A stretch of DNA of 64,000 nt from Eukaryota sp. GEM-RC1 (lineage: Eukaryota): assembly GCA_040285855.1 (NCBI GenBank), contig JAUFOQ010000002.1, positions 868,001 to 932,000 of the forward strand, written 5' to 3'. Below, in pieces: positions 1-61,913 of this stretch (the first letter of the stretch is position 1; every line of letters starts with the position of its first letter). The position numbers were made by a program, and so were the translations under genes. Under the pieces are notes generated by a model that searched no databases, was not told the DNA's origin, and worked only from the letters and a program-made list of their open reading frames with translations.

Positions 1-3000
1 GTTAACAAATTTCATTACATTTTTAAATCTTAACAAGCCCAGTTTGTTAATAAGTTATGATTGGCATTTAGATACTTTTCCGTTTTTAGTATCACGATGT
101 AAAAAATTAGAAGTTGACATTGATTATACAATTGATGATTACATTTCTTCTCTTCCATCTTGGTTCCATAGATGGTGCAAACCAACGGAAATTGGTCCTT
201 TTATTCCCTTGACTTGAATTCAGTATTGAAGAAGTTGTATGTCTTTAGAGGTGGTCGGTTTTTGGAAATCGTGACAACAATTATGATGGACATGAATAAT
301 CATTTGAGAACATTTGAAAGTTTTGACAAGGAAAATGTATTCCTTAAGAGAATATTTCATTCTTTAGACAATCCTCTAGTGTCAGTTGAAGAAATGAAAG
401 TGAAAACTGAAGAACGTCAGAACAAGGAGCCATCTGTAAAACTAAAACCCAAGGCTGAAATCGAGATTCGACTGTTAGCAGAATTAACAAAACTTAATGA
501 ACTTTGGGAATCTACAACTTCAAGAGCCACCTTGTTATTGAACTCAATCAATAAGCTGTATTTGATACAATACCTTCTCTTTGATCTTCTCGATGAAAAG
601 AAACAAAAATTAAGAGAACGACCACCAATGAAGGCGGTGAAGAAACGATTAGATAATGTTGTATCAAAGACTAAAGCGAATTGGATGGAATCTTGTGCTA
701 AGAGAGCTCATCAAGTCAGAGTTCGTGGTACACATATGTTGAAACATTTTTTCATAACTAAGTTTCACAACTCTTTAATTTTCGACAAGGTCAAAGAGAT
801 ACTACCTCCCACTGATTACATTTTCACTGTTAAAGAAGAAATTGAAACAGACACTGAAGTTTCAGACACTGAACAAACAGAAATTTTAAGTGAAGAGTTT
901 GTGCCTCAACAATTAGAAGAAACTGAATTGCCTGTATCTTCAGACCCTCATTTTGTTTTCGATCGTACCATTGAATCGGAAATTTTAGATGAAGACAGTG
1001 GAATTTTAGAAGAAGACGGTGATGAAAATGAAACTGGTGAACCTGAACTTGACCTTTTTACTAAAATTCAAATTACCAAATTTGAATTACCAGACTGGGG
1101 AGCCTACTTTAAGAAGGGTCCAATGGGACAACTGTTGGCCATGATGTGGATTCCAAATCACCAATTTTTCAACAGTATTGATCATATTAAAACTGTGGAA
1201 AACTCTTTAAACAACATCATTTCTAATGTAAAAACAACAACTACAAAGAAGGAGTTCGCCCAACACTTCCTATCAAACTACATCCCTCTGTTAGAAACTG
1301 CTGGTGAAATGGTTGGTAAAGATAGGATCGTGTTTCCAAGTGGACTATATTTGGCTAATCCTCTCGGTTACGTTGCAACCGAAATTATTACAAATTATAA
1401 GAACAACATGAGCCAACACTTCCATGAATATGTTTTTCAAGTTTTTAATTTGGTTACTCAAAAGAAAGAGAGAATGGAAGCTATTACCGACAAAACTGAA
1501 AGACAAGAACTCTGTCAAAGGATTAATGAAGTTAGAGAATTGATTATTAATGGTCAAATTTCCAAAATTAATTTTGAAGATAAGCAAGTTTTTACCAATC
1601 CGGAATCTCACTTGAGTATATTATTCTTCAATTATTTGTTCAATTATTTTGAGGGAAAGATGGAGAAAACGATCTACTATGCTGAAAAGAGTGATCCGTT
1701 ATACTTTTTAAGTCATGCACTGTATTTGAACCGTCTCATTGAAGACTATTGTCCTGGTGTAAGAGCAAACAATCCTTTCCCATTGTCTAAATCTTTAATT
1801 CCAAATCATATCAGGTTCGATACGCAATGGTTCCACGAATTATTTCGTAGGGATATTACCCAACCTGTTAAATATAATGAAGTACGGAAGAATATTTGGG
1901 ATTCAGTATTAAAACCTCAGGCTATTCCAGAGTCATTATCCTATGACTTTAAATACACTTCAATTTCGTCAGACGGTTTAAGTTGTAGTTTGTTGATGAT
2001 GAGGAAAGATTTACTTGATGAAAATGGAAATACTCGTGAAAATGTTACAGCAGTTAATCTTGCTTCAAATGAACGATATATTGATTCCTTAGGTGAAGAT
2101 GAAATTGAAGAACTGAATTTAAAATCTAAGAGAATTGTTGCTGTTGACCCCAACCAACATGATCTCATGTATTGTGCCAGTTTAAAAACTGATGAGGAAG
2201 AATCGTGTGAGAAACTTAAAGTTGATGAAACAACACAATTAATAGAAAATGGAATGGCCAATGCTTGTGTTACAGAAATTGATCTTGCTTCCAATGAACA
2301 ATCTATTGATTCCTCAGGTGAGAAGGAAATTGAGCCCAAGCCAGTTACCCTAGTTAGAACAAGAAAGATTGCTCCATTGTCTTCTAAGAAAAGGGGAAGT
2401 TTAAAAAAAATGAAAAAACAATTAAATGATTGGAAGCAAGACACTAACCCACAACCTGTAAAGTGGAAAAGGCGTGACAAATGGAAGGTGTTCCGATACA
2501 CTGCTGGGGAGAGAAAGGCAGATCTTAACAAATCTAAATGGAAACCAAGAAAAAAATCAGCCATCACAGTTCCAAAAGAATTGACAAAGAAAGAAAAAAA
2601 AGAAAAAAAGCTAAAAAAGAACGAAAGGAAAAACGAAATTTCAAAAAACATGAAAGGAAACGTCGCAACAGAGGAATTGTCGAATTGACGGAAAGCAAAC
2701 GATTACAGAGGTACTCAACTGAGTTTGAGAAGAGTGTGTGGAATGGTCAGAAAATACTGGATTCCTACAGTTCAGATACTCCAAGAAGAAAATCATGTAA
2801 ATTGGAAGAATTTTGAAGATACATTGTTAACAATGAAGTTTTCTGTGCATTAATGAGAACAACCACAACTGGAAAAGCAACTGCTGAAGGATTACATCAA
2901 AAGAAAGGACCATCAAAGAAACTACCTAAGAAAGGACCAACTCAACAAATACCTGCTGCAGCTGAAGGTCTTTATGAAGAAAATTTTTTTAGACGTAGAC

Positions 3001-3855
3001 GCCTTACCCAATATTCAAGAAAAGAACGAAATGAACAAAACTTGGTCCACAGATTAGCTCTCCAATATGGTGATCCCAATGAAGTCGTTGTTGGTTTTGG
3101 GGATTGGAATGACACTCAATTCCGAAGAAGAAGGGGTAAGGCAAGTACAGTAAAAGGAGCGACTCTTCGAAACTTGCTAAGAAAATTTGGATTTAAAGTT
3201 TTCTTAGTTGATGAATTTATGACAAGCAAATGTTGCTCTGCTTGTGCTGCTGAAAACCAGGAAGGTATCTGTTCCAATCCTGACTTTGTCAAAGTCATTG
3301 ATCCTCTGTGGAAGAAGAAGGTACAGAAGGAGGAGAAGAAATTGAAAAAAGAAATTATGGAACACAATCAATTAGGCAATGTTGTGAAACGTAATTTTGA
3401 AGATGAATGGACCAAACAGTTGCCATTCATGAAAGCAAGGTTGAAGAGCAAAAAAGTCTCACCATGGGGCTTAGTCCAATGTGCTAAATGTCATGTCCTC
3501 TGGAATAGAGACTTCAACTCTGCTATTAACATTTATAACATTGTAAATGGAATTATCCAAGGTCAAGGTAGACCTGCTGTCCTCGAGAGACCAAAATCTC
3601 AAACAATAACTATCGAGGATGGTGGGATTACAGATCAGGTTCCCAAGAAGAAGAAGAGTGTGAGTAAGTGTCAGTATTGTCATATGGAAGGTCATACAAC
3701 GGCAAAGTGTCCTCAAAGACCTGTGCCTCCTAAAAGTCCCTCGCAAATGTAGTGAATGTAGGCAACCAGGACATGATAGAAGAAACTGCCCAAGTAAGAC
3801 CCAGAAAGATGTACCCAAAGACTCACAAGTAGAGAATGAAGAACCGGAATCCTGA
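1..3855 (+). CDS. Fanzor1 (TnpB-like RuvC nuclease), copy 1; 5' part lies before the window; split by indels
   Basis: Motifs SISSDGLSCSL, RuvC-I RIVAVDPNQHDL, VVGFGDW, RuvC-II FLVDEFMTSKCCSAC, CAKC and RuvC-III LWNRDFNSAINI. Colinear with the copy at 48873-52750. Frame breaks near 200, 2550-2600 and 3735, plus an in-frame TGA at 2814. The frame after 3735 reads KVPRKCSECRQPGHDRRNCPSKTQKDVPKDSQ...ES* (stop 3853-3855), matching the end of copy 2. Confidence 0.9.
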
Positions 3856-3983
3856 ATCTTATAAGTTAGCTCGTCCTAAAAGGCTTGCAAATGAGTGGCT
3901 CATTGTGGTTCGCAATGTGGATCACAATGTGCCAAACTGTGGAGAGAATGTATTATGCATTTGAAATGAAAACCACAGATCGG
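3856..3983 (+). ncRNA. Putative Fanzor omegaRNA scaffold (right end of copy 1)
   Basis: Non-coding blocks shared with copy 2 (AAGTTAGCTCGTCyTAAAAG, AAACTGTG, TTATGCATTTGrAATGAAA, CACAG). Stems TGGC..GCCA (3896-3934) and CTGTGG/CCACAG (3937-3978). Similarity stops just after CACAG. Confidence 0.75.
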
Positions 3984-4049
3984 TTACTCCTTTACTACTA
4001 CCGGTAGTTTCTCTGTTCTTTAAACGGAGTCTAACTACAACTCTGACTA

Positions 4050-16145: not shown

Positions 16146-16454
16146 CAGGGGTGTGAAAGCAATATTGATTTTCCAATATTGATTTTCCTTCTTTGAAGTG
16201 GAGCAATATTTATTGTTTTTATTGAGACATGCTGCATTATTGCCAATATACTTGGAGTTGATCTTTTCGTTCTTTTGCTTCACAGTTCTGTACTTTGCTC
16301 CAAGAAAAACCGGTTTGTTGTCTTATGCGTTTGGGAATGGTTTGATCAGAATTGTTTCCAGTTGGTAGAATACCATCCGTAACAACAAATCAGGTAGAAT
16401 TTACTTTGTGGCTGAAATATATTTATTTATTGTATTATTATTTTCACACCCCTG
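16146..16454. mobile_element. hAT-like MITE
   Basis: TIR CAGGGGTGTGAAA / TTTCACACCCCTG. Internal sequence is shared with the element at 35980. No TSD seen. Confidence 0.75.
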
Positions 16455-16606
16455 GTACTGTTAACCAGGAATTATCTGTGTCTAGAGCTTCATCGCTTTT
16501 ATTGTGATATTTCTCGTTGTCCCTTTCGTCTGTAAACAATATTAGGATATACAAAAATACAAACAAATATGGTTTAATTGAGTTGATTTCGATTCTTATT
16601 TAATGA

Positions 16607-34979: not shown

Positions 34980-35370
34980 TACTTATAAATGTAACACAAG
35001 TGCATGATGTACTATCAAATGATCATCAATTTGTGAAATGATTTTCAATGTTGCTGTTGCAAGTAATTGCCGATTGCTCATTACTAATGTGTCATTAGCT
35101 AGGATGTAGCCGCTACAGAACTTATCGAGCTTGTATGCATGATACTTTAAGAGAAATACAAACAGATACATGCTATGTTTAAGTCCTACAAAATGCAATC
35201 AATTGTTGAACCAGTTCTAAAACTTTTTAGAAATACATAATTGCAGCGACGAAAAACAAAACCAATTTTTTCGTGAAATGGGAGCAGACGTTGTTGTCAG
35301 TTCTTCTTCAGACAAAATATATGTTGTCGATGTGCTGGTTGTTTATATTTGCAAAGAGACATCCTAAAAC
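34980..35370 (+). pseudogene. Degenerate copy of the RLE retrotransposon at 45.6-46.7 kb
   Basis: GAGCAGACGTTGTTGTCAGTTCTTCTTCAGACAAA... (ADVVVSSSSDKIYVVDV) matches RRADVVVPSSSDKLFVVDV. Confidence 0.7.
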
Positions 35371-35743
35371 TGTAAATTGAAGAAGGGAGCAAAAATACAC
35401 ATCAAAATAAATGCTAATAAACACTAAACACAGAACATTCCTGGTCAACACTACCATAATTCTTATAGAACTGCATCATAATTGATTTAATAAACTTAGG
35501 CATCGAACAGAACAGAGAAAAAATTAAACAATCATGACAAATTGATAAGTTAAATATCTTATTCTGAGACTCAAAATCAGTTACAAACTGAGATGCCGTT
35601 TCACCGATACAGTGTACCACCGAAAATAGAAATGGCAACTGGAACAATTACAAATTTTTTAGTGTTGTCATTTTCACTATTAGTGTTAAGGTATTTTGAT
35701 CCAAATTCTATAGGTTCAAATTCTATGGGTTGAATATCCCCAT

Positions 35744-37213
35744 TGGGACTGTGCAGGTTCGGGTTTAGGTTTCAAACCAAACCTAGCTGAACCTAAACAT
35801 TTTTTCATAAAACCAAACCAAACCTAAACCTAATAAAAGCAAACCTAAACCTTTAGTTTCAGAACTGTAGGAAAATGAAACACATTCAATTTCAATAACC
35901 CTCTGACGCTTACATTATATATGAACGATCTTAACGCTTCTATTGACGAGAACTTTTCTGAAATTCTTAAGTCTTAAGGCAGGGGTGGGAAAACAATATT
36001 GCTCTCCCAATATTGCAATAAATATTGCTTCCATATTTATTGCCGCTCTTTGAGGTGGAGCAATATTTATTGTTACACCGGTTAATTATCGCAATTGTTG
36101 CAATAATGGTCAATTTACTTTGAGTTGTTCATTTCGTAGTTTTGCATCACCATTTGGACTTCCAAAACCATTGTTGTTGTCTTATGTGTTTAAATATAGT
36201 GAGAGTTGATTTATCGTTGATGATTTCTAGTTGGTGTATTGTCATAATGTCTGTCATTTGAGCTCAGTTCAACTGTTAACTAAAAGTACAATGTAAATTC
36301 TTTCTCTCACACTTCTGATTCTACATTGTCATAATTGCTTCTAACGACGAAGCCCAAAGAAACAGCACTATTCTATTATACGAAGTTAGATCCTCAACCA
36401 AGAAATACTCATTGAGAGCAAAGGAAAAAAAAGAGTCTCGGTACATTGATTTAAACTTTATTCCTTCTACCTCTAACATATGTGAACGAATGTTCAGTAA
36501 ATTAAAAAGAGTGATCAATTGCCACAGATTTTCTCTTAAGCCTTCGAGTCTTGAAATGCAAATATTGATGAAGGAGAACAGTGACTTTTGGGATGAAGCT
36601 ACTTTAAACATATCATGAGCAGTACAAAATACAAATTCGAAGATGTAGATAATGGTATTGAGATTATTTCGGATATTTCTGATGATGAGGAACAATAGAA
36701 TACATGTATGTGAGTTTTTTGTAATTAATACATAATATGATTCATATTGTTGCATTATTGCAATATTGCAATATTGGTCCAATAATTGCAATATTTATTG
36801 GCACTATTTCAGAATTGCAATATTTATTTTGTGGCTAAACAATATTTATATTTATTGCAATATTGTTTTCCCACCCCTGTCTTAAGGATTGGAGACGATT
36901 TTTCGAAAAGAAAAGTAGCACCACTAGTAGTTGTTTGTGATACTTGAGCATTAATAACAAAGCTTATCTAGTACTACCGTAAGAACAACTTTATTTTGAC
37001 AGTGTTCCACTGAACTACAGTGTATTTTTAATTCATAATACATATCGGGTTTACTAGGTTTAAACCTAAACCTTTTTTTTTACAAAACCTAGCTGAACCT
37101 AAACCTAAAACTTAAAAACCTAGCTGAACCTAAACCCATTTTTGGAAAACCAAACCAAACCTAAACCAGGTTTGGGGTTTGAAACTTTTGAAACCCAAAC
37201 CTGCACAGTCCTA
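35744..37213. mobile_element. hAT MITE (outer)
   Basis: TIR TrGGACTGTGCAGGTTyGGGTTT, 8-bp TSD ATCCCCAT and AAACCT subterminal repeats. Confidence 0.92.
35980..36879 (+). mobile_element. Non-autonomous hAT element nested in the previous one
   Basis: Perfect TIR CAGGGGTGGGAAAACAATATTGC, TSD TCTTAAGG and a dimerisation-domain relic FIPSTSNICERMFS...RFSLKPSSLE. Confidence 0.95.
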
Positions 37214-37289
37214 ATCCCCATTTTACCAATTCCCACAAACTCTTTTTACTTATGGGATATACTTTTGAAATGCTTTGGGACTCAGGACA

Positions 37290-38016: not shown

Positions 38017-41000
38017 ATGTCAGAATGTAACTTTTGATGATGGAAACAATCTGCCGTCAGAAATAGCATCTAAGCTCGAAGATGTTGAACGTTCTGCCAA
38101 AATGGAACTCGGTAGTCCCTCCGCTCCTCTAATCCTTGCTGTAGCTCCCGTAAGCTCCACTCCTGCAAGTCCCTTCAGCATTAGTTTGTTCAAACTCTTG
38201 ACATTTCATACTAGTTTACAACGTTGGGCTGAATGACGAAATTGTTGCAAGCGAGCTCGCTTCAGGTAGTTCTCCTTCCCTAACTTACGACCGCTACCGT
38301 CGTTGTATTAAATCCTTTGCAACCACAGTTCTAGGAATCCCCGATCAAGATTTTGGTAACATTTCCCGTGGATTCAACTCCGATATTAGTGTTATTGAAA
38401 TGAAGAGCGTAGTTGACAAGTACCTACAGCTGATCCTTGACTCTGGTACCTCTTTCCCTCAGAATTGTCACGAACAGCTTTGCATGGTTATTTAATGTTT
38501 GTTGCAAACTAATGAACAAGTAAGAATAGATGTTGTTTCTGTAGCCTGTGTGGGAACTGATGAACCTATTATTTTGAGTGCAACTTCTGCCGGCAATTAT
38601 GAAGTTGCCGAATATCCATTTGTTGATAACGATGGTCCTGAATGCGCAGTCCAATTGGAACCTCTTCCTGACTATGCAGCTAATGTTAGTCCTTTAAGAA
38701 AAGGTATGAACTTTTTCGCTAAGGGACGTACTAGAATGGTCATTGGTGGGCTTGCCCTAATTGCTGTTGTTCTTCTTGCAATAGTATTTTCCATGATGTA
38801 TATGGGTAAGGACAGTGTTCATTCTCTCAAACTGACTTTTGTCAATGAAAAGACCAAACACCTATTCCAAATGTAGTTGTACAATCTTTGCATCAAAATT
38901 TTGGAAGCAAAAAGTAATAACAAAGGAGTCGTTACTATTCCTATGGCAGCATCAGTGGAATCTGAAATATTGGTTATGCATCTCAATTTCTTTGATCGTC
39001 AACTTACATTTACTCTTGAAGATTCTTTTGAAGATACTATATCCTTGAAAAGTCATGGTTTTGTGTCTTCTTTTGCTAGTGGATCTATTACTGGCTATGA
39101 TGCTTCATTCGGTCTTGATGTAGAAATTCCTTCTATGCTCAATAATGTCAACATTACTGTCATTGATGAAAATGCTTTCAAATCTAAAGGTATAGTTTCG
39201 GTTGTTATTCCTGACACTGTCTTGGAGATCCGACAATCTGCTTTCGAGTCCAATAGTCTACAGTCAGTATTCATTCCAAATGATGTTACGATTATCTCGC
39301 CGTCGGCATTTGCTAATAATCTTTTGGAGTCTGTTTCATACGGAAGTGGTGTCACTTCTATTGGTACGAATGCCTTCACTTTCAATCAATTGACTACTCT
39401 CGATCACCCCTTTTATTGGAAACCACAGGTAACAATTTGAAGAACGTTCTATCATCATTTCCCACACTTCTCGATGGTGTCACTACTATTGAAGACGGTG
39501 CTTTCCAAGCCAATCATTTGACAGCGCTCGTCGTTCCCAACAGTGTTATTAGTATTGGAGCTTCTGCTTTTAGTGGTAACCAGCTAACTGAAGTAACATT
39601 TGGAAGTGCACTGCAATCTCTTGGAGAAAACGTCTTTGAAGATAATCTCTTAACATCAGTTGAACTACCTGACAGTCTCCTTGAAATTGGAAGCTCGATT
39701 TTCAAGGGAAATCACATCACTTCTGTAAGTCTTGGAACTGGTATTACAACCATCGGAGATTATGCTTTTGATGGACACAATTTGACATCAATTACTCTTG
39801 GAAGTGCAGTAGTACACATCGGAACTGCTGCTTTTAGACGTAATCGTTTTACCTCGATCGTTATTCCCAACAGTGTCACATTTATTGGAGATTTGGCGTT
39901 TAGTTCCAATATGTTGAATGAAATTACATTTGGATCTTCTAGTTCTCTTGAACATATCGGAGGTTCTGCTTTTAGAGATAATCATTTGACTTCACTCAGT
40001 ATTCCTAACTCTGTTGCTTTTATTGGAGCCTCTGCTTTCAAGGGAAATCAACTAAGTACTCTTGTTCTTCAATATGGTGTCACATCTATTGGAAATTCTG
40101 CTTTTGAAGATAACCATGTAAGTTCTCTCGTTATTCCCAATTCTGTTGTTGCTATTGGAGATTCTACATTCCGTAACAACAAGTTGACTGGTGTTCAATT
40201 TGGTTCTTCTCTTGAACATATCGGAAATGCTGCTTTTGAACATAACACATTACCATTCCTGGTCGTTCCCAACTCTGTTTCTACTGTTGGTGAGGCTGCA
40301 TTCCGTAATAATGAGTTGACTTCTATCACATTCGGAACAAATTTCCAACATATCGGAACTTCTGTGTTTGAAAATAACCTATTAACTGCTCTTACCATTC
40401 CTCTCAGTGTCATTACCATTGGAGATTCATCTTTCAAGAACAACCTTCTCGATACACTTACTCTTCCTAACACTGCCATCTCCTTAGGAGACTCTGCTTT
40501 TGAAAATAACAAATTAGCACATGTCACAATTCCTGTCGGTGTAACAACCGTTGGAGATTTCGCTTTCCGTAACAATCAGTTAATTACTATTACACTGGGT
40601 ACTCCTCTTCAACATATTGGAAGTGCTGCTTTTGAAAACAACAAAATAGCAGCAGTCAACATTCCTAATAGTGTCACAAGTATGGGAGATGCTGCTTTCC
40701 GTAACAATCTGATTGCTGGTATTACATTCGGAACTGGTCTTGATCATATTGCAACTTCTACTTTTGAAATTAATCGAATGGGAGCAATCGATATTCCTGC
40801 ATACATTATTACTATTGGAGACTTGTCTTTCAAAAAGAATATTATATCGAGTGTGACTATGTATCAAGGAACTACATCCATTGGAAATTCTGCTTTTGAA
40901 GACAATATAATTGACACTCAAAGTATCCCTCACACTGTTGAAACTATTGGAGATTCTGCATTCCGTAATAATAGGGTGGCTTCGCTTACAATGGGAACTT

Positions 41001-42118
41001 CTGTTAGACATGTTGGAAGTACTGCTTTTGAAGACAATATAATTGACACTCAAAGTATCCCTCACACTGTTGAAACTATTGGAGATTCTGCATTCCGTAA
41101 TAATAGGGTGGCTTCGCTTACAATGGGAACTTCTGTTAGACATGTTGGAAGTACTGCTTTTGAAGACAATATAATTGACACTCAAAGTATCCCTCACACT
41201 GTTGAAACTATTGGAGATTCTGCATTCCGTAATAATAGGGTGGCTTCGCTTACAATGGGAACTTCTGTTAGACATGTTGGAAGTACTGCTTTTGAAAACA
41301 ATCTCTTACACACGCTCAACATTCCCAACTCTGTCGAAACTATGGGATACGCTGCATTCCGTAACAATAAGTTGACCGCCATTTCATTTGGAACTGCTTT
41401 TAATCACATTGGACCTTCTGTCTTTGAAAATAACATGTTTACCACACTCAATATTCCTTACACTGTAATCACTATTGGAGACTCATCTTTCAAGGGAAAT
41501 CCAATCGGTACTCTTAATCTTGTTAATGACATCACCTCTATTGGAAATTCTGCATTTGAAAGTAATCAAATATCCGCGCTTGCTATTCCTTCTTCTGTTG
41601 TTGCTATTGGAGATTCTGCCTTCCGTAACAACGGTTTGACTAGTCTGTCATTCGGAGCTGGTCTTGAACATATCGGAACTGCTGCTTTTGAAAGTAATCA
41701 AATACCCACACTCTCTATTCCTACATCTCTCACTACCATTGGAGATTTTGCATTTGCTTCAAATACGTTGACCACTTTAACTTTTGAAGGAACCTCACTC
41801 GTTACTGTTTCAGCTTCAACTTTCTCTTCAAACCTGCTGAAATCCGTGACTATTCCGCAAGGAGTCACTTTGATTGATGCTTCTGCATTTTTAAACAATC
41901 TTTTTGAATCTGTTGTTATCAGTAGCTCTGTTGAAACCATTTCTGAAAATGCCTTTTCTTGTACTCCTGATGATCAGTTTACATCTATTCAAATTGATGT
42001 AAATGGTGCTGATGTTCATGCTGAGGCTTTCCCTTCTAATTTCGCTGATGTATATGGTAATAATGGAGCAGGTTCTTATACTAGAGGAGCTGATTTAATG
42101 TGGACACTTGCAGCATAG
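38017..42118 (+). CDS. BspA-like (TpLRR/LRR_5) leucine-rich repeat surface protein with N-terminal TM anchor; several frame breaks
   Basis: About 40 repeats of LxxxxIPxSVxxIGxxAFxxN, TM segment MVIGGLALIAVVLLAIVFSMMYM and a probable 31-nt intron at 38184-38214 (GTTTGT...CTAG). The 5' structure is uncertain. Confidence 0.85.
40890..41296 (+). repeat. 132-bp tandem repeat x3 (two LRRs per unit)
   Basis: Identical unit starts GACAATATAATT at 40901, 41033 and 41165. Confidence 0.95.
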
Positions 42119-45599: not shown

Positions 45600-46700
45600 A
45601 CAACTAAAATTTGATATCATTAAAACAACACCCATCGCTATCAAACCTTACAACAGCTTTGTCCTCATAAAACGAACTCACTGCTAATAAAGCCTTGGAG
45701 ATGATTAGGGGAACTGTTTTAAAAATAGTAAAAACGATCCGATTCAACCATAACATATGATCAAAACGTTTGTTCATCCTATTTTTTACGATTCTTCCGA
45801 AATCGTTTAAAGAATTCAATGCACTTTTTCCTAAACGTCCGTAAATTGAAATAGCAAAGGGGATAATTCGTACTCAACATGTTTTACATGTTTTAAAGCC
45901 ATCAATGGTTTATTGTACTTATCCTGTTTGGCCTGTTCAGAAATGTCTGAAGGAGAAGTTTCAGACGAAGCGTTCTTTAAAGATGTCTTCTTACAAACAT
46001 CCACTGACACTACATCAACAACAAACAATTTGTCTGAAGAAGAAGGGACAACAACATCTGCTCTCCGTTTGCCAAAAAATTGGTTCTGTTTTTCGACATT
46101 ACTATTATTACTTGGTTCTAAAGATCTTAGAAGTGGTTCAACAAATGACTCAATTTTGTAAGACTTACACATAGCATGTATTTGATCTCTTACAGCATCA
46201 TGCATACACGCTCGATAAGTTATGTAGCGATTACAACTTAACAGATGAGAAAACGTTAATTGTTTTCCACATCTATATTGAAGATCATTTGACAAATTAT
46301 ATTGCCATAAATCACAACGAAGTCTCATTGTAGTGGTACATTGATGATCATTTAACAACAAACCATATACTTGTGGAATTTGATTAATTAATGCCACAGT
46401 AGAACTCTCCTTTAAATCAATTTAAAAATTCTAAATTATTATTACATTGTATTATTATTTACTAATAAAAATGTTGGAATGAAGCAAGCTATTCGAAATT
46501 ACTTGAGTTTAGACCTGAGTCGGAGTTTCAATTGGGAGTCAACAATACAATCAGACTGCTTAAAAAGTGGGATCCTTACGCCACCAACACCAAGCAACAA
46601 AGACTGTCAATGGACGAACTCTCAACATTTGATTTATTAGTTAGATCATAGTATTGATAGTTCCAGAAGCAGTTGTAGGAAGATTACCAAATTACAAATG
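45600..46700 (-). pseudogene. 3' part of an RLE-type (CRE/SLACS-like) non-LTR retrotransposon
   Basis: Zinc knuckle CG...HLLSC, HDAVRD, VEP, RRADVV...VVDV and EQAKQDKY fit a restriction-like endonuclease. No RT domain visible. Confidence 0.8.
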
Positions 46701-46727: not shown

Positions 46728-48617
46728 CAGGGATGGGAAATATTGAATTTCCAATCGAATATTGCCAATCATCATCAATATATATTGATTGATCCGCTGT
46801 TTTTCAATATCAATATATTGCCAGAATTGCCAATACAATATGTCTCTAATAAAACAACATATTTACTTTTTCTTCCCTTACATGCCTGACAATAAAGTCG
46901 TTTGGGGGGTCTTTTATACCCTGTAGTCAACAATTGACAGCCATGAAACCTGGAAATGTGTGTGTGGAGAGATCCGAAAACGAAACACTTAGAGTTCATT
47001 CCTGCAACTTCTGTTGAAGTGGAAAGATTATTTTCTCGCATTACTAGTAAGCTTTTTAAGGGCCAAAATCGATTTTGTTTATCGTCAGCAAGATTTGAGC
47101 AATAGGCATGGCTGCTCTTCAATCGAATGTGAACACTTTTAGAAATGCTTGCCAATCCCACTGGTCTGAAGAAGATGAAATCGTTGATGGAGATGGAGTT
47201 TAGAGTCTCAAACATACATGTTGATCACACTCGTTTTGTCAGTGTGATCACAATCACAACCACAATCACAACCACATCACACGATCACATGTGATCACAA
47301 TCACAAATTATGATCACAAATACTGTTTATTGGGAAAAATCAAGTTGATAATGATGTATTATAATATTTATACATATCGAATCGAACTTACATAACCCTA
47401 CAGCTTTCTTTTGCGAACACGATCTATTTCACTGACCTGAGACCAATCTACATCAATGTGCTCCTCCATATCTGCTCCTTCGATCACAAAAGCTTCTCCA
47501 ATATACTCTTATCATCCTCATCCTCATCGTCATCTGTGATGTCGTCAAAAACATCTCTCAAATCAACATTTGCTACCACATCCATTGTATCTGCCGGTTG
47601 TTCTTCTTCTGCCAACAACACTAAAGACCCATATTTCCACATCCAAAAGAACATCCCCCACTCTAGATTTGGTCTCCAGTATTTAGTTGAGAATACCGAG
47701 ATTCAAATTTTTGGGTTCTTGTTTTAGAAGAGGAGTATTGAAATGAATAATCGTCATGTCATCCAAATCATCGTTGGTCAATTTCAAGTTGTTTCAAGTT
47801 GAAATTTTCAACCTTCTTTGGACACCTGGAAGTCAAATGAAGACCAATTCCTTTCTGTTGTAGATGCTGAACCAGTATGGCCTGTTATTCTTTGAGCTAA
47901 TTGACTCAACTGTGGATAAAGCTGTCTACCAACAGAGTACCACCATTGATGGATAGCGAAATTAATGACTTCAGAAGTAGTAAGTTTTGTGGTAAAATCT
48001 ATTGTATGATATAGTATTGTTTGATATCTTATAGCACCCTTGACATTGAAAGTCTTCCTTACCTGATGTGTTTTCATGAACTTTCACGAGCTGGTAAAGC
48101 GGATTGTCCTTGTTACAATCGGATTGGAGAAAAGGAAGTGATGTCATTGTTCGGAAAGGGTAAATGTAGTTTTCGAGCACCAGATTAGACTCTAAACTTG
48201 TGCTCTATACTGTAGAGTGTTGTTGAACAATTAAAACTGGTCTAGGTTTATCACATACATGTATTATATAAATGACGTCACTTCAGTATGGATCACATTT
48301 GAATCACAAGTGATGTGATCACAAATAAAAGGCCAGTGTGATCACATGTGATCACAATCACAATGTGATCACATGTGTTTGTGATCCACAAGTATGGTCT
48401 CAAAACTTAAGACTATTTGTTCGCAACAAATTGTTGCATTTCTTTTGTAGTATAAAATTTAGATAGGTTTTGTTTTGATATCTTTCATTAATTTAAGTGT
48501 ATTAACTATACAATCTACATATTGCAATATTGGCAATATATTGGAGCCACTACTGTATTGATTGGTGAGCTGTTTTCCAATACCAATATATTGCCAATCC
48601 AATATTTCCTATCCCTG
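46728..48617 (+). mobile_element. Non-autonomous hAT element (outer)
   Basis: TIR CAGGGATrGGAAATATTG, TSD CTTATTCT and relic FIPATSVEVERLFS at ~46990. Confidence 0.92.
47213..48396 (-). mobile_element. Non-autonomous hAT element (nested)
   Basis: TIR CATACwTGTkGATCACA, TSD GTCTCAAA and relic WWYSVG..YPQLSQLA...SASTTERNWS. Confidence 0.92.
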
Positions 48618-48714
48618 CTTATTCTCGGTGAGAATCACTTAACTTCAGTTCTACTTCTACAATGTGTAGAAGTGTAGTATTTTTTCTGAGATTTCTTTTC
48701 TTTTCTCTTTCTTA

Positions 48715-48872
48715 CCACTGTGAATTTCATTCCAAATGCATAAAGGCATAACCCTTCACATTTTCATGATCTCATGAGCAAGCTCGTAAGCAAACTCATG
48801 AGCAAAATTCACAGTTTGACAAATAAATGTCCTCATTCGCAAAGTCTTTTAAGACGAGCTAACTTCATAGAT
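48715..48872 (-). ncRNA. Putative Fanzor omegaRNA scaffold (right end of copy 2)
   Basis: Homologous to 3856-3983. Perfect 10-bp closing stem CTGTGAATTT/AAATTCACAG (48718-48727 with 48805-48814), with inner hairpins. Confidence 0.75.
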
Positions 48873-51800
48873 TCAAGATTCCTGATCTTTCTGGTTTACG
48901 TGTGAGTCCTTGGGTACATCTTTCTTAGGCTTATTTGGACAAGTTGCTCTGTTATGTCCAGGTTGAAAACATATACCACACTTGTTAGGACCTCTGACTT
49001 TTGTTAGAGGACGCTTTGCTTTACCCTTACCCTTACTCACAGTCTTTTTCTTAGGAATCTGATCTGTATTCCCGCCATCCACGACAGGTGTTGTTTGAGA
49101 TTTTGGTCTCTCGAGGATGGCAGGTCTACCTTGACCTTGAATGGTTCCATTTACAATATTGTAAATATTGATAGCAGAATTGAAGTCTCTATTCCAGAGA
49201 ACATGGCATTTAGCACATTCAACTAAGCCCCATGGTGAGACTTTTTTGCTCTTCAATCTTTCTTTTGATAATGGCAACTGGTCTGTCCATTCTTCATCAA
49301 AGTTACGCTCCACAATATTGTGTAATTGATTGTGTTCCATAATTTCCTTTTTTAATTCTTTCTCTTCCTTCTGTAACTTCTTCTTCCAATGAGGATCAGT
49401 GACTTTTATCCTTTCAGGATTGGAACAGATACCTTCGTCGTTTCTGGAAACACATGCAGAGCAACATTTGCTGGTCTTAAATTCATCAACTAGGAACACT
49501 TTAAATCCAAATTTTCTCAATAATGTCCGAATTGAAGCACCTTTCACAGTCGATGCTTTACCTCTTCTTCGACGCAAAGCAGTGTCGTTCCAGTCTCCAT
49601 ACCCAACAACGACTTCATCTGGGTTTCCAAACTGGAGAGCAAATCTGTGAAGCATGTTTTTCTCACTTCGTTCCTTTCTTGAATATTGTGTGAGACGATT
49701 CCTTCTAAACCACCTTTCTTCGTAAATTCCTTCAGTATTTCTTTGATCAGTAGTGGGTGATCGTAGTAAAGAACAGGTAATTTCTTTACCAAGAACAAAA
49801 GCAGAATACAGAGTCAAATCACAAGATTTACTGCCTGGCGAGTTAGAGCCCCATTGATCTAAAATTTGTTGCCCATTTATGTCAATGCGTCTGCCATCTG
49901 GACTGTGAATAAATTGGGTAGAATATTGTTGTAACCGTTCGGATTCAGATAAACAGTAGAGATTGTATAGTCTTATTTTCTTCTCCAGCTTCCTCTTCTT
50001 TCTCTTAGCTCTTTTTCTTTCCTTCCTTGTTTTTTTCTTTTCCATGGAGACTTTTTAATATCGGCATTGCGCTCCCCAGCAGTGTATCTGAATACTTTCC
50101 AATTGTCTCGATTTTTCAACTTGACAGTTGTTGGTTTGTCAATAGTGGGTGCGTCTTTCCAATCCTTCAATTCCTTTTTTAATTTTTTCAAGCTTCCTTT
50201 TTTCTTTGAAGATTTTGGAGAAATCTTTCTTCTTCTGAGATTGGCTGATGTATCGAAACCTTCGATTTCCTTTTCCTCCTTAGATTTTAAAGAAGCACAA
50301 TACATCAAATCATGCTGATTAGGATCAATAGCAACAATTCTTTTGGATTTCAAATTTAAGTTTTGAATTTCTGTGGAACTCAAAGAATCAATGTACCTTT
50401 CAGTAGCTGTGTAGTCAACTGCTTTCACCTTCTTATGAGGATTTCCTTTCCCATCAAGCAGATCTTTCCGCATCATTATTAAACTACAACTAACTCCATC
50501 TGTAGAAATAGAACTGTATTTGAAGTCATGAGACAATGACTTTGGAAGACACTTTGGTTTCAAAACTGAGTGCCAAATATCTTTTCGAACGTCATCAAAG
50601 CTTCCTTTAATTTCTGATGCATAAACTTCTTTAAACCATGTAGTATCCAATCTGATATGATTAGGAATCAATGATTTTGTTAGAGGAAAAGGATTATTGG
50701 CAGTAACACCAGGACAAGAGTCTTCAACAAGACGTTTCAAATACACTGCATGACTTAAGAATTTCAAAGGATCTACTTTTTCAGCATAATAGATTGATTT
50801 CTCCATTTTACCTTCAAAAAAAGTAAACAAATAGTTAAAAAATAGTAAACTCAGTCTAGACTTGGGATCAGGAAACACTTCAACATCTTGAAAATTAATT
50901 TTTGAAACTTCCCCATTAATGATCAACTGTCTGATTTCATTAAGCTTTGTACACAACTCTTGTCGTTGATTCTTATCACTAAGCTTGTTAAGTCTATCTT
51001 TTTCAGGGTAACCAAATTAAATACTTGAAAAACATATTCGTGAAGATGTTCACACATGTTGGTCTTGTAATTTGTAATAATTTCTGTTCCCATGTAATGC
51101 AATATACGAGATAAACGATGACTACTGGGAAACACAATCCTATCAAGTCCAACGGAATCAGCAGCTAGTTCTAAACGAGGAATGTAATGCATCAAGAAGT
51201 GTTGAGCAAACTGATTTTGAGTTGAGCCATCATTTGTGTTAGAAATTATGTTTGTTAACGATTCTTGTACAGTCTCAATATGATTCTGATTGTTTACAAG
51301 TTTGTAGTCCCTAATCGTCATCATAGATAACACTTGTTCCATTGATTTCAACGTAAAAAAATTCTTCCAGTATGGCAATTCAATTTTGGTAGTTTGAATT
51401 TTAGTCCAAAGGTCAGGTTCAGGTTCAGCACTCGCATCTTCAATATTTTCTAATTTAACGGGAGGAGCAGTAGCATCGATAGACTCTGAATGTACATCTG
51501 TTTCTTCTTCAGTTGACTCATCTGTATCAGAATGCATTTCTTGCTTAACAGTTACATTTGGAACAGTAGCAGGCAGTAACTTCTGAATGTAACCTAAAAT
51601 ACCTGAATGGTGAAAATTATGAACAAAAAAATGTTTCAAAAGAGAGAACCACGGACTCTTACTTGATGAGCTCTCTTAACACGAGATTCAATCATTCTAA
51701 TTTTGGATTTCATGATAACATTGTCCAGTCGTTTCTTAACCACTTTCATTGGTGACTTTGAACGTAAGGTTTGCTTTTTGGGATCCAATAGGTCAGCCAA

Positions 51801-54800
51801 CAAGTACTCAATCAGAGGTAATTGTTGAATTGAGTTCATCAACAATAGCGGTCTTGTCGATTCCTTGGCCCAAAGTTCATTTACTTTTCCAAATTTCGAA
51901 TAAATTTCTTTTTAATCTTATCGACCTTCACTTTGGGATTGTCTGGAACTAAAACATTAATACTGTCAATTATGCCATGCAAGTTTTGGACATTATTGAC
52001 CAATTGAACTTCATCAGGATCAGAGTCATGATTAAGATCTTCCAAGCGTTTGACAGTTTCATTTTTAGAAAAATTATTCATTTCAAGAAAAATTTGAACA
52101 ACATTTTCCAAAAAACGGCCACCAGTAAAGACATAAAAATTCTTCAGTACAGCATTCAAATCGAGACTAAAAAACGGACCAAAAGTTGTTTCCTTACACC
52201 ATTTGTTGAACCAAGAGGGAATATAGGGTTTAAATTCTGGAAAAGTAAACGTTGTATTGATTTTGAGGACTTTACAACGTGATACAAGAAAGGGAAATGT
52301 ATCTAAATGAAAATCATAACTCACAAACAATCGTGGACAATGTTGAGTTATGAAGGAAATGAAGTTTTTAAGCATACTGGATTCACTATCTGAAATATGT
52401 AAAGTACACAAATCCAAGTTTGTAGTATCAAAATTGTTATGAGAAAATAAATGTTTTTCATTAAACTCATTATGATCAATGATCTGGATGAAAATTGATA
52501 CAATCGGATCAACAGAAGAATCACGTTTAACTTCTAATTGATCTTCAGCTTCAACTTCAACAGTTTCAATGTCATCATCATCTTGAACAAGTTGAACATT
52601 TCTGCCATTAATTCTTTCTTTTTGGCAAAATCACTTTGAACATGAATTAAACAAAAAGTTGGCAGATTGTTCCAAAGTAGAGGGGATTTAAGAAAGTCTT
52701 GAATTTGTATTTCTTGTTCGATAACCTCAGTGTGTAGATTTACTTCCATATTAAGAATTTCTTTTGAATTGGCGATGGATACGACATAATGGAGGCCTGT
52801 GATTTTTGTGGTAGTTCAGAAGGTGGTAGTTCAGTTAATGATGATAGTTCAGATGGCGATGATAGTTCAGGTAGTGATAATTCAGATGATTCCAATGTGG
52901 ACATACGGCGGTGAGTCTTTCGTATTGGAGTGGCACCAGTTGAAACAAGGGAGCTGGTAGTTCTAAATTTACTTCGTTTAATTAAAGGTGAACCTCGTGG
53001 TGATGGAATATCAGAAATTTTGGCCTTACTTTTTTTAGTGCTTAAACCAGTAGATGTTTTAGTGCTAGCAAGACGTTTACCTGAGATTGGTGACGCAGAA
53101 ACATGCGACAACTCAACAGGACTAAAAGTTTCAAAATGTTCCAAAATTTTTACTTCGAGACTCATGAACATCAATAGTGGTGCAACACAGCAGTTCTTTA
53201 ACATCAGTCCACCTTATGACCACAGATTGATCTACATTCATTAAAAGTTCAATGTATTCGAGAACACAAAAACCAGAGTCAGTTAGAGTATGTTTGATAT
53301 TTGATGGAATAAACCGTATGTCTCTGATTTCAAGGACTGATGAAACTGAATAAATTTGTGACACAATTGAAAATAAATTGGAGGAAGTTGGTGCAACTGG
53401 CGTTTGGTTAGCAGGAAATTCTCTGGCATAATCATCCTCATCGTAGGTCGGATCAATGAATAAAATATGACTTGTATGAGATGAAATGATCAGAATAATT
53501 AAACCCCAATGACGACCATCAGCATTAAGATCGCACATTGCACTATTGACAGGAACAAGTAGCATTTGTTGGTGTTTCTTTTCACCACATTGGAAGAATT
53601 TCTGCGTCAAAAAATCTGAAAGTGGATATTTATCATAGGGTTGGTCACCATATAATAACGGATATAAATCAGTTGGCCTAATTACATAGTCATAAAAGAT
53701 TAAACCTGTTGATTCCACAAGTATTTTGGAATATTTGATGAACAATTGATCGTCAACATAAGTAAACAATTTCTGAATCTGTTTACGGAGATCTGCAGCA
53801 TTAAGTTCATTGTTAACTTGGATTAAAGCACGTTCAATAGATATCAAAGATAGATTGATGCGATCCCTTGAAATGAGTTCAACAAATTTTTGAATATAAC
53901 CAATAACATAAATACCACAGTGATTAGGAGTCTGTGTCTTGGTGATGTTGACCCTCTGTACGTTCAATGTTACTTTCCTACATAATTCATCTACAACAGA
54001 ACTTAGATAAGAAGAACCAACAATTGGATCCACAAATATCGCGTTGTTTTCCGCACAGTCTATTACCATTAGACCCCAATGAACTCCTCCAGATCCACCT
54101 GTTGTATTCATAGCATCGTTGAGAGGAACAGCGAAGTATCTGGTGCTTCTCTCCCGAGCGTCATCAATCTTGTTTTGGCAGTATCCATCAGTGAAAAAAT
54201 CTGACCACATCTCACCGGGAGTAATGAAATAGCATTCCCAATCGAGGTTTGCTTCTTTGAATAGGTGTTTTGAGTATTCGGAAAAGGCGTAATCATCTAT
54301 CCATTGGCCAGGATTCAGATACTCTAGGGAGTCTTTGGACCACGGTCCGGGATTGGACTCAATGTCACCGTCGGCGGTGAGGTCTTTTGGGGACGGATGT
54401 CTACACGGTTTTTCAATAGTACTCGTCCGGTAGACAGAGAGTGAGAGTAATAGTGATGGAAGAATGACTTGAAACAGAGGATGAGACGAGATCAATGTAC
54501 ACGAAGAGGAGAAATTTAAGAAGGGTTGTAAGAGCAATTGGTAGCAACAGAATTGCAACTTCCTTGACACAACACCAAGAACTACATGATCCATTCGAGA
54601 GTCAAACCGCACAATGGATTGACTGTCGAAATAGTTATAAAATCCCGTAGCATTGAAGACGAAGGAACACAATTTGACGTAGCTTATGGGGGAGGGACTC
54701 AGCAACAGCGTAATGGCGACGGGATTCAAGAGACTTGGCAGCAACTCGTAGCAACACAATTGGGGCTTCTTTGGCAACACAAAAGCGGACCTTGACACAA

Positions 54801-55278
54801 CACCAAGAACTACATGATCCATTCGAGAGTCAAACCGCACAATGGATTGACTGTCGAAATAGTTATAAAATCCCGTAGCATTGAAGACGAAGGAACACAA
54901 TTTGACGTAGCTTATGGGGGAGGGACTCAGCAACAGCGTAATGGCGACGGGATTCAAGAGACTTGGCAGCAACTCGTAGCAACACAATTGGGGCTTCTTT
55001 GGCAACACAAAAGCGGACCTTGACACAACACCAAGAACTACATGATCCATTCGAGAGTCAAACCGCACAATGGATTGACTGTCGAAACAGTTCAAAAATC
55101 CCGTAGCATTGAAGACGAAGGAACACAATTTGACGTAGCTTATGGGGGAGGGACTCAGCAACAGCGTAATGGCGGAACTAGAGAACTTGAGCACCGTTTC
55201 CAACATTTGAACCAACCAAGAGTCAATCCGCACAATGGATTGACTGTTGGAGTAGTTTAACGTTTGTAACAGAGACAT
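48873..55278 (-). CDS. Fanzor1 polyprotein, copy 2: leader - 2A - 2x SENP8/Ulp1-like - PolB exonuclease-like - RuvC Fanzor - zinc knuckle (8 frame segments)
   Basis: RuvC motifs RIVAIDPN, GYGDW, FLVDEFKTSKCCSAC and LWNRDFNSAINI. Seven joins (~53140, 52780, 52615, 51885, 51640, 51000, 50033) are each repaired by +/-1 nt in a homopolymer; three are confirmed by the unbroken frame in copy 1. Confidence 0.8.
54343..54384 (-). other. 2A / StopGo ribosomal-skipping motif DLTADGDIESNPGP
   Basis: Exact match to D(V/I)ExNPG|P, in frame and directly before the protease domain. Confidence 0.9.
54562..55174 (-). repeat. 228-bp tandem repeat (~2.7 units) in the leader upstream of 2A
   Basis: Near-identical units with a 228-nt (76-codon) period, plus a partial copy at ~55219-55250. 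Confidence 0.95.
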
Positions 55279-55759
55279 CAAGTACTAGCGGAGTGGCAAG
55301 GAAAATGGATTCTGATAAAAAAAGCGCTACCCTGACTGTGCTCTTCACTTGAGATCCTTAGGTGACATTTTGTCCTTAACTCACATTTTCACTCCCAATT
55401 TTAGGCCCAATTTATGATACTGTGTATATCGGGTCATAATCAGTTGTTTTCTTGTTCTTTGGGTTTTACACAGTTATTTGTTATACAAAGAATCAATATT
55501 GATACACGAAAGTAAGATCAATGAAATCACTTAAATTTTCTTCATATCATTGTGTATTGGGTTTTTAGTTTAGACGCTTTCGAAATTTCAAGTACGGAAT
55601 GCGTACTTCAAATCGCTTCAAGTCCACTTTCCGTACATGAGATTGGAAAAATGAGTAAAAACATATTTAAATGCACTCACGAATTCAACAATATTCCTAA
55701 ACTGAAGCCAGTATATTTTAAAAGTATTAACTGATTTTTAATTATGCTTCAAAAACCAA

Positions 55760-56797: not shown

Positions 56798-57790
56798 GTG
56801 TGTACCGAACAAACTGTATCTAACCCTTTGGATACAGCCCCATGTGATAATTTTGTAAAAATATTAAAACAAAAATGGGATCTCTCACTTCAAGAGTCTG
56901 AGACTGTTCCAGTTGCTCATGAAGTTACAGAATCAATTTCAACTGACTTAACAGTTGAACTTTCTGAACCTGTTGCTTTAGAACAAGTTGATGTTACTAT
57001 TCAAACAGAATGTACTCTTGACTCAAGTACTGAACTTTCTGAATCTGTTGAACTTACTGTGGCTCTATCACAATCTCGAAATCCTTTGGACGCTATCCCA
57101 GTTAAAGAATTTAACCGTGTATTTTATTGTGAAGCTAATAGAAAATTGTGGGGAAAATCATCTAGGGAATTATTGGAAATTCTTCAGAACGATGATGAGT
57201 CTACAGATGATGATGATGAAGATGAAGATGATGAAGAAAACGAAAATGAAGAAAACAATTTACAAGTATTGTCAGCCAGTGATGGAGACGCTTGCTTTAG
57301 TTATTGGTGTAGCATCCCAAAAGGGGTTTGTAAGGTCTTACTATCTACTGAAACTGAAGTTATGATTAATGATCCAGAACATTATGCCAGAAAAAATGCT
57401 TGGGAACTGTTAAATGTGGTTGTTACACAGCAAATGAAGATTTTATGTCCTCTGTGTGCTTTTGGGGACCCCATTGGGTCACATAGAGGAGTTGGACATT
57501 TTTTCTTGGTGGAATGGTTCTTTGATTTAAATTCTCGAAATCATATTTTTAACATATATGATAGTATGAACTTTTCATGTATGAAGAAATTTATTATTTT
57601 ACCTTTTCGAACCTTGTTAAGGAACATCAACAGTGGAGGGAGGATCAGGAATTACCTTGGATTTAGTGAAACAGAAGCACAAGGTACCTTATCTTCAGAT
57701 AGAATGGCATCAACGAGTGCTAGGAGAGAGATCTCATGTTTGATTTGTAAGATCAAGGGGGTGACTTTAAAAGACTCGGATATGTATTGA
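56798..57790 (+). CDS. Ulp1/C48 protease-like protein, apparently truncated (His and Asp present, catalytic Cys not seen)
   Basis: KILCPL...GHFFLVEW...FNIYDSM after an acidic stretch; no QxxxxDCG follows. Confidence 0.5.
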   Translation: MCTEQTVSNPLDTAPCDNFVKILKQKWDLSLQESETVPVAHEVTESISTDLTVELSEPVALEQVDVTIQTECTLDSSTELSESVELTVALSQSRNPLDAIPVKEFNRVFYCEANRKLWGKSSRELLEILQNDDESTDDDDEDEDDEENENEENNLQVLSASDGDACFSYWCSIPKGVCKVLLSTETEVMINDPEHYARKNAWELLNVVVTQQMKILCPLCAFGDPIGSHRGVGHFFLVEWFFDLNSRNHIFNIYDSMNFSCMKKFIILPFRTLLRNINSGGRIRNYLGFSETEAQGTLSSDRMASTSARREISCLICKIKGVTLKDSDMY

Positions 57791-58043
57791 AGTGCTCGAA
57801 AGTAGTCCAAGGACAAGAAACATTGCTTGTCATCAAGCTCAATCTCAGCACCAACATCACATTTTACAAAGACATATAATTTGACATATGAGACGATAGA
57901 AAGCTGATGATGGTAGAATAAGCTGCTAAGAATCAGCTAAGAACCATCATATTCCATACAGTTGAGGTAGATATATAATTTATAATGAAAGGAAAGTTTC
58001 CCTGCACAATCTGCATCTTAAACATCACCACTTCACACACTCA

Positions 58044-60089: not shown

Positions 60090-60170
60090 ACAATACTTAT
60101 AGTATTGCAATGCAGACAGAAACAAAGGTTCTCACAATTGTCCACGTCCACAATATTGTACCAGAGAAAA

Positions 60171-61912: not shown

Positions 61913-61913
61913 A

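Follow-up and report, generated by a model that had tools for sequence, protein, structure and literature searches.

Two genes for Fanzor1, an RNA-guided DNA nuclease of eukaryotes, lie in a 64,000-nucleotide stretch of DNA from Eukaryota sp. GEM-RC1 (the window), and the hairpin region 3' of both stop codons is most likely an omegaRNA scaffold, with or without a pseudoknot. Our folding models make it likely that this scaffold is a set of nested stem-loops lacking a pseudoknot, followed by a guide of about 15 nt that would come from the flank and begin a few bases past the terminal stem. The coordinates of the features are collected in Table 1.

In this model, transcription would pass through the right end of the element, and the RNA would be loaded on Fanzor1 and trimmed to a discrete RNA carrying the guide. 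Cutting of empty sites beside a motif would then help the element to be retained or to home, as with other Fanzors. Less firmly, the GG-TWA found after the terminal stem may represent the element end plus a fixed set of target bases absorbed into the scaffold, and the RNA may start near the stop codon or, should the long-range helix form, 220 nt upstream within the gene. The scaffold would be a new member of a known RNA class; as an omegaRNA it would extend Fanzor1 to metamonads and would offer scaffold and guide boundaries that can be tested. The larger value may lie in the protein family, of which unbroken copies are present in a cultured relative (RCL).

Table 1. Features of the two Fanzor1 copies in the window
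Feature	Positions	Strand	Remarks
Fanzor1 gene, copy 1	1-3855	+	starts upstream of the window; exonuclease-like remnant, REC/WED, RuvC I-III, zinc finger, two CCHC knuckles
Possible long-range helix, 5' arm, copy 1	3632-3643	+	partner 3846-3859; in coding linker
Likely omegaRNA scaffold, copy 1	3856-3986	+	folding, block conservation, Fanzor1 architecture
Candidate first stem CUCGU/AUGAG	3870-3895	+	invariant in both copies; one of several 5'-half folds; not above shuffles
Proposed pseudoknot, 5' strand	3888-3893	+	partner 3958-3963; disfavoured
Second hairpin GGC/GCC	3897-3933	+	lengthened by 12-nt tandem repeat (3904-3931)
Terminal stem CUGUGG/CCACAG	3937-3978	+	best-supported helix
Local hairpin within terminal stem	3946-3962	+	holds CAUU of the proposed pseudoknot
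Likely guide, copy 1	3984-4002	+	start 3984 or about 3987, possibly 3979
Likely guide, copy 2	48695-48714	-	start 48714 or about 48711
Likely omegaRNA scaffold, copy 2	48712-48872	-	terminal stem 48814-48805 with 48727-48718; 12-nt tandem insert 48771-48806; local hairpin 48763-48734
Fanzor1 gene, copy 2	48873-55281	-	read as one polyprotein region with interruptions, comprising 228-bp repeats, 2A-like motif, Ulp1 domains, linker, exonuclease-like domain, Fanzor1 and CCHC knuckle
Possible long-range helix, 5' arm, copy 2	49053-49065	-	partner 48869-48883
PolB-type 3'-5' exonuclease-like domain	52094-52408	-	copy 2; acidic motifs degenerate
Ulp1-family (C48) protease domain	53860-54102	-	E = 1.7e-6
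2A-like motif GDIESNPGP	54343-54369	-	copy 2; also close to the N-terminus of P0012 and P0157

Predicted structure of the putative right-end RNA

The original prediction had described a scaffold in which short blocks are kept while loop lengths differ, and this description held. All of its motifs were found where it had placed them, both in copy 1 on the + strand (CAAATG at 3888-3893, CATTTG at 3958-3963, CTGTGG at 3937 and CCACAG at 3973-3978) and in copy 2 on the - strand (CGAATG at 48839, CATTTG at 48738, CTGTGAATTT at 48814 and AAATTCACAG at 48727-48718). Six ungapped blocks chosen by hand 3' of the stop were identical at 74 of 86 positions, and large insertions occurred only in hairpins. 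This identity (86%) is barely above that of four-fold-degenerate sites in the final 470 nt of coding sequence in the comparison (30/38). Because identity at four-fold sites climbs near the 3' end, from 25/56 at positions 1531-2550 to 30/38 at 3204-3671, conservation alone says little about the scaffold. The rise itself suggests subfamily recombination or added constraint.

The 125-160 nt 3' of each stop folded well as the sense strand (z = -3.55 for copy 1 and -4.04 for copy 2; 0/200 shuffles were as good). The antisense strand gave z = -0.80 for copy 1 and -3.85 for copy 2, and folding as DNA gave -1.40 and -4.25, respectively. Thus, for copy 2, antisense RNA and DNA fold about as significantly as the sense strand, which counts against the nested scaffold. 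Each of the two long inserts consists of a tandemly repeated 12-nt near-palindrome, located at a different place in each copy; they fold by construction and supply much of the folding energy. Tandem duplication of a 12-nt near-palindrome is a simple route to hairpin extension. The insert-free terminal part of copy 1 had a z of -2.0, with 7/200 shuffles as good, and the 5' halves alone were no better than shuffles (z = +0.67 and -0.35; 147/200 and 60/200 as good). There were no matches to the scaffold in Rfam, and exact scaffold patterns had no matches in viral and metagenome contigs. Within the window, these patterns recovered the two known copies and one coding match, with three mismatches, to the second pattern. 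No shared AATGAAA-like signal was found after 13 other genes of the window.

The terminal stem CUGUGG/CCACAG had pair probabilities of 0.99-1.00 and one two-sided change between the copies. A Watson-Crick helix of at least 6 bp with a two-sided change arose in 0/150 column shuffles, and only this stem (CUGUG/CACAG) beat the shuffles. The second hairpin, GGC/GCC in copy 1 and GAC/GUC in copy 2, has one two-sided change in 3 bp. Its probability was 1.00 in copy 1 and 0.17 in copy 2, where there is a rival hairpin, and GCC/GTC has alternative GGC/GAC partners at 3882 and 3897. The compensatory changes claimed for these two helices come to only two pairs altered on both sides, one in each, and two sequences do not amount to measured covariation. 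RNAalifold, run on an automatic alignment of the two sequences in which the inserts were misaligned, returned no two-sided change. The candidate first stem has 5-6 bp and competing folds, compared to the 7 bp expected for Fanzor1. Inside the terminal stem, CAUU was paired with the adjacent AAUG at a probability of 0.99 in both copies (shuffles of the interior reached this in 29/200 and 20/200 cases), and in copy 2 the inner hairpin has been lengthened independently by a second stem. A single nested model lay within 2.8 (copy 1) and 0.9 (copy 2) kcal/mol of the minimum. The nested scaffold is favored by the two-sided change that keeps the terminal stem, by the local hairpin inside it, and by the unrelated flanks beyond.

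A pseudoknot between CAAATG (CGAATG in copy 2) and CATTTG had also been proposed, and would have contradicted the idea that this feature was lost in Fanzor1; the evidence points the opposite way. A scaffold with a CRAAUG/CAUUUG pseudoknot, either constant or a protein-induced alternative to the local hairpins, would be new to Fanzor1, and it seems unlikely to us. The six bases are complementary in both copies, both strands fall within conserved blocks, and the sole change, in copy 2, gives a G-U pair. In addition, pseudoknots are invisible to folding programs, and that of Fanzor2 was missed by prediction (PMC11832414). But the helix has no two-sided change, and a helix of 6 bp with no more than one G-U pair arose in 11% of shuffles; two such helices together (terminal stem and pseudoknot) arose in 1%. 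In each copy, either strand has a partner close by, with CAUU held by AAUG in the last stem and AUGAG able to pair with the upstream CUCGU or UAUU, and the independent extension of the inner hairpin in copy 2 also speaks for the local pairing. Freeing the two strands would cost 8.9 and 5.3 kcal/mol, against a gain of about 7 from stacking and before any loop penalty.

The position of the proposed pseudoknot also differs from that in TnpB and Fanzor2, where the last 4-5 bases before the guide (positions -4 to 0) take part (PMC11832414); here the strand ends at least 15 bases upstream of every candidate guide start. For a pseudoknot of the TnpB/Fanzor2 type, from the 4-5 guide-adjacent bases, no partner common to both copies stood out in the folds. 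Fanzor1 RNAs, including the solved ones, are described without a pseudoknot in PMC10432273, PMC11832414, PMC10711439 and the review PMC13565253. Among the relatives analyzed below, nested stems account for all six of the highest covariation scores at mostly complementary positions.

A helix reaching back into the open reading frame had been suggested as well, and it fared differently in the two copies. Both arms are present, and the proposed 5' arm was the best upstream partner in each copy (-13.2 and -12.7 kcal/mol; 2/40 and 1/40 shuffles as good). The helix was populated in copy 2 (0.96) and not in copy 1 (0.00), and the two copies are not independent. The 3' arm straddles the stop codon in both copies, in copy 1 because the true stop (3853-3855) lies in another frame. 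From these models we regard the helix as possible, though somewhat doubtful.

In both copies, a conserved structured region after the gene gives way to a variable flank (n = 2), and the flank most likely supplies the guide, as had been proposed. The flanks past TWA are unrelated between copies (238/300 shuffles scored as well). Similarity had been said to end just after CACAG; this was true of the farther flanks, but GG and then TWA, after three bases at one end and one base at the other, are still common to both. The accompanying premise that a scaffold stops where its element ends does not hold as a rule for Fanzor1, whose scaffold includes the target duplication (PMC10711439, PMC13565253). 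For that reason the guides may start about three bases later than proposed (3987 and 48711), if TWA joins the scaffold. Searched against the rest of the window with up to three mismatches, the candidate guides had one match, of low complexity. Perfect short hairpins were seen in both right flanks, at 3997-4008 (+) and 48644-48664 (-), at unequal distances from the terminal stem. We rejected them as the real element end, since their positions do not correspond between the copies.

The Fanzor1 genes and their surroundings

Both right ends belong to Fanzor genes, as the original prediction had it. A profile of 17 C-terminal sequences matched SpuFz1 (2.5e-35), PpFz1 (9e-24) and GtFz1 (4e-17), with the next match at 0.096, and by this profile ranking we class the predicted products of both genes as Fanzor1 and not Fanzor2 or TnpB. 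Both copies have a split RuvC D-E-D and a zinc finger (DPN, DEFxTSKC, NRD and CxxC...CxxC). The glutamate precedes the C4 zinc finger by six residues in each, the spacing expected of Fanzor1 (PMC3627910, PMC13565253).

In the assembly, neither gene has a continuous frame: copy 1 contains three frame changes (near 205, 2610 and 3740) and one in-frame stop (2814-2816), its true stop lying beyond the two CCHC knuckles, and copy 2 contains seven frame changes. Of these ten frame changes, eight remove a single base, in most cases next to a homopolymer run. One-base losses at homopolymers are the error pattern of nanopore sequencing. The frame changes fit errors of a nanopore assembly, and decay of the genes would also be compatible with these sequences. 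Relatives with unbroken frames (P0006, P0012 and P0157) are available. Programmed frameshifting was considered and rejected; the break positions differ between the copies, and P0003 crosses an A-rich stretch in a different register.

The unbroken relatives indicate how the protein may be built. P0012 (1473 aa; 4 members) and P0157 (1491 aa; 6 members) contain a 2A-like motif, a PolB exonuclease domain (E = 5e-13; nearest structure, Pol delta; atlas 0.94) and then Fanzor1, and the exonuclease domain is likewise present in P0006 (1324 aa). PolB-type exonucleases are marked by the motifs DxE, FD and YxxxD, and these look intact in P0012 and P0157. The exonuclease-like domain of copy 2 is 30% identical to that of P0012 (E = 6e-14). 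Tandem repeats precede the 2A-like motif in copy 2 and also in P0157, and GDIESNPGP fits the definition of such motifs (PMC3708506). Beyond the plan of P0012 and P0157, copy 2 has Ulp1 domains, of which a second, degenerate one appears by eye downstream of the first, and a zinc knuckle. Ulp1 and Fanzor1 may share a single frame in copy 2, although the similarity of the linker reached only E = 0.02 and the junction holds a one-base frame change. A single-sequence AlphaFold model was unusable (pLDDT 33).

As predicted here, the Fanzor1 protein is thus of unusual size, the nuclease being preceded by an exonuclease-like domain. A more far-reaching proposal is a new giant kind of Fanzor1 in metamonads: a 2A-split polyprotein with a natural fusion to a PolB-type 3'-5' exonuclease (and, in some subfamilies, to a Ulp1 protease and RNA-binding knuckles), with an omegaRNA of up to 350 nt starting inside the gene, that would cut and resect its own target and spread with neither inverted repeats nor a classical transposase. 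Taken whole, this proposal is rather improbable. If the fusion is true, it bears on Fanzor homing and on editors that need end resection. No natural fusion of Fanzor with an exonuclease domain was reported in the available text of the literature matches listed, and there was no instance of 2A linked to TnpB among the matches listed for 2A and transposons.

The window is eukaryotic DNA with few introns; its host genes (SNF2, importin, kinase, TatD, BspA repeats) are interspersed with several transposon remnants. A query with the C-terminus of copy 2 returned five proteins, all named Eukaryota sp. GEM-RC1 and the top one 97% identical, and two of the protein clusters, P0001 and P0002, list 26 and 14 members; the longer Fanzor1 relatives are from a source named Eukaryota sp. 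TZLM3-RCL. Skoliomonas sp. GEMRC and RCL are free-living metamonads, with a nanopore assembly corrected with Illumina reads (PMC11316075). By linking these names, Eukaryota sp. GEM-RC1 is likely the metamonad Skoliomonas, an anaerobic protist that has been little studied, and the window likely lies in or near the genome of Skoliomonas sp. GEMRC. There were no matches for Fanzor in Metamonada in the literature searched, nor for Fanzor with Skoliomonas, Barthelona or Trichomonas among the matches listed; the supplementary Fanzor catalogues, outside this search, may list relatives. Nothing bearing on this Fanzor family was present in the available parts of PMC10530073, PMC13434818 and PMC6338049.

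Other elements and repeats were also seen in the window. A separate element at 46728-48617, with 28-nt inverted arms and clusters of the palindrome TGTGATCACA, begins about 100 bp beyond the right end of copy 2. The region 56798-64000 is rich in transposons and includes a PIF1 helicase gene (58044-60089), a broken MULE transposase with a knuckle (60332-61912) and, by eye and in a part-scanned stretch, an additional transposase-like frame (about 62100-64000). A BspA-type leucine-rich repeat gene with 132-bp repeats is located at 38877-42118, and dispersed non-coding repeats, probably small non-autonomous elements, are found at 35028-37215, 45976-46298 and 16146-16548.

Other explanations for the hairpins

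The hairpins could instead be a transposon-end signal read as single-stranded DNA, as in Helitron2 or IS200/605, or an mRNA 3' element, and not mainly a guide scaffold. Helitron2 elements with hairpin ends do carry Fanzor1, and the transposons that host Fanzors include some without inverted repeats (PMC3627910). At copy 2 we found no inverted copy of either right end above the shuffled level in 15 kb upstream, and no target duplication longer than 6 bases (chance level) in 3.6 kb upstream, the two marks of TIR transposons of the Mariner, MuDR and Harbinger types; these searches cover copy 2 only, the left end of copy 1 being outside the window. The strong folding of copy 2 as DNA (z = -4.25) would fit such a signal, as would the PIF1 helicase gene 2.8 kb from the start of copy 2. 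Helitron2 is marked by a RepHel gene and by short, asymmetric inverted repeats, and the Pfam scan found no Rep domain. Copy 1, however, folds well solely as sense RNA, the structure is more than 120 nt long, and this is where characterized Fanzors place the guide RNA (PMC10432273, PMC13565253). We therefore regard this explanation as quite unlikely, while noting that the roles of end signal and guide scaffold are not exclusive.

It is also conceivable that the shared blocks were left by a recent common ancestor, or by gene conversion, at the 3' ends of two decaying copies, with the hairpins as by-products of palindromic tandem duplication. The climb in four-fold identity toward the 3' end, the 12-nt tandem repeats that make up both inserts, and the interruptions in both genes could all be read in this way. 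Such an origin would leave unexplained that in the core two stems 4/4 substitutions are two-sided and keep the pairing, and that the terminal region of copy 1 still folds when the insert is removed. The interruptions, mostly one-base losses at homopolymers, are also what nanopore assembly would give (PMC11316075), and relatives with unbroken frames exist. This account seems very unlikely, and the nested guide scaffold remains the reading that we prefer.

Related right ends and known systems

We compared the window with giant-virus-type Fanzor1 loci (the best 80 of 123 viral and the best 80 of 453 metagenome loci; L001-L160). A parsable C-terminus was present in 152 of the 160, and a recognizable end in 135 of these 152; removal of near-duplicates left 60, and 6 badly aligned ends were dropped, leaving 54 (alignment A6). 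These 54 right ends have a strongly covarying, nested scaffold free of pseudoknots, with a 7-bp first stem within the 3' end of the gene and then a three-way junction. Pairing was possible in 88.5% of cells, and 19 of 25 pairs had a two-sided change (0/500 shuffles; slid controls 31-48%), in a structure that was derived from the same 54 sequences, which favors the fit. Their closing stem takes in four bases past the inverted repeat, and one of these four covaries (42 U-A, 10 A-U and 2 G-U).

By eye, the relatives and the window ends share the order hairpin, AA, stem, inner hairpin, stem, 3 nt and TA, with CUGUG/CACAG in the window replacing CUUUG/CAAAG or CCUUG/CAAGG of the relatives, and CAU in the inner hairpin. 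A covariance model of the 54 relatives (R1) had neither window end among its 20 matches to E = 10; its best local score was 2.6 bits, on the sense strand of copy 1, and none fell over the sense scaffold of copy 2. There was also no convincing counterpart of the closing stem at the window ends. Because of these two results, the likeness is a lead and not support for homology.

The giant-virus-type Fanzor1 proteins (element ends GGTG-TA) resemble those of the window at 27-39% identity over matched RuvC II-III segments of the best-scoring loci, and their right-end scaffold overlaps the 3' end of the gene and has a similar order of stems. They differ in having inverted repeats (for 26/59 ends, a left match fell within the flank retrieved) and in a closing stem to which flank bases contribute, and R1 misses the window ends. 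TnpB (ISDra2) and Fanzor2 (ApmFz2) are similar in that the flank of the right end gives the guide and the RNA may overlap with its gene. In these systems the final 4-5 bases of the scaffold take part in the pseudoknot, in contrast to the one proposed for the window, inside the loop of the terminal stem, and the window protein falls outside these clades. The 2A-bearing polyproteins of non-LTR elements (L1Tc, Ingi, CR1/L2) also have GD(V/I)ExNPGP near the start of a long frame, a motif that alone is insufficient for activity (PMC3708506), but no reverse transcriptase or AP endonuclease was present among the window ORFs scanned.

The best structural relatives are the Fanzor1 proteins of Spizellomyces punctatus, Parasitella parasitica and Guillardia theta (PDB 8GKH, 9CF0 and 9CER). 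The window differs from them in that no terminal inverted repeat was found, in having no Rfam match to the scaffold, and in a protein region of about 1,300-2,100 aa with a 2A-like motif, Ulp1, an exonuclease-like domain and CCHC knuckles. Fanzor1 omegaRNAs have a 7-bp first stem, other stem-loops that vary, and a length of 75-150 nt (PMC11423790). In common with the solved Fanzor1 systems, the window copies have the glutamate six residues before the zinc finger and a likely scaffold of nested stem-loops right after the stop.
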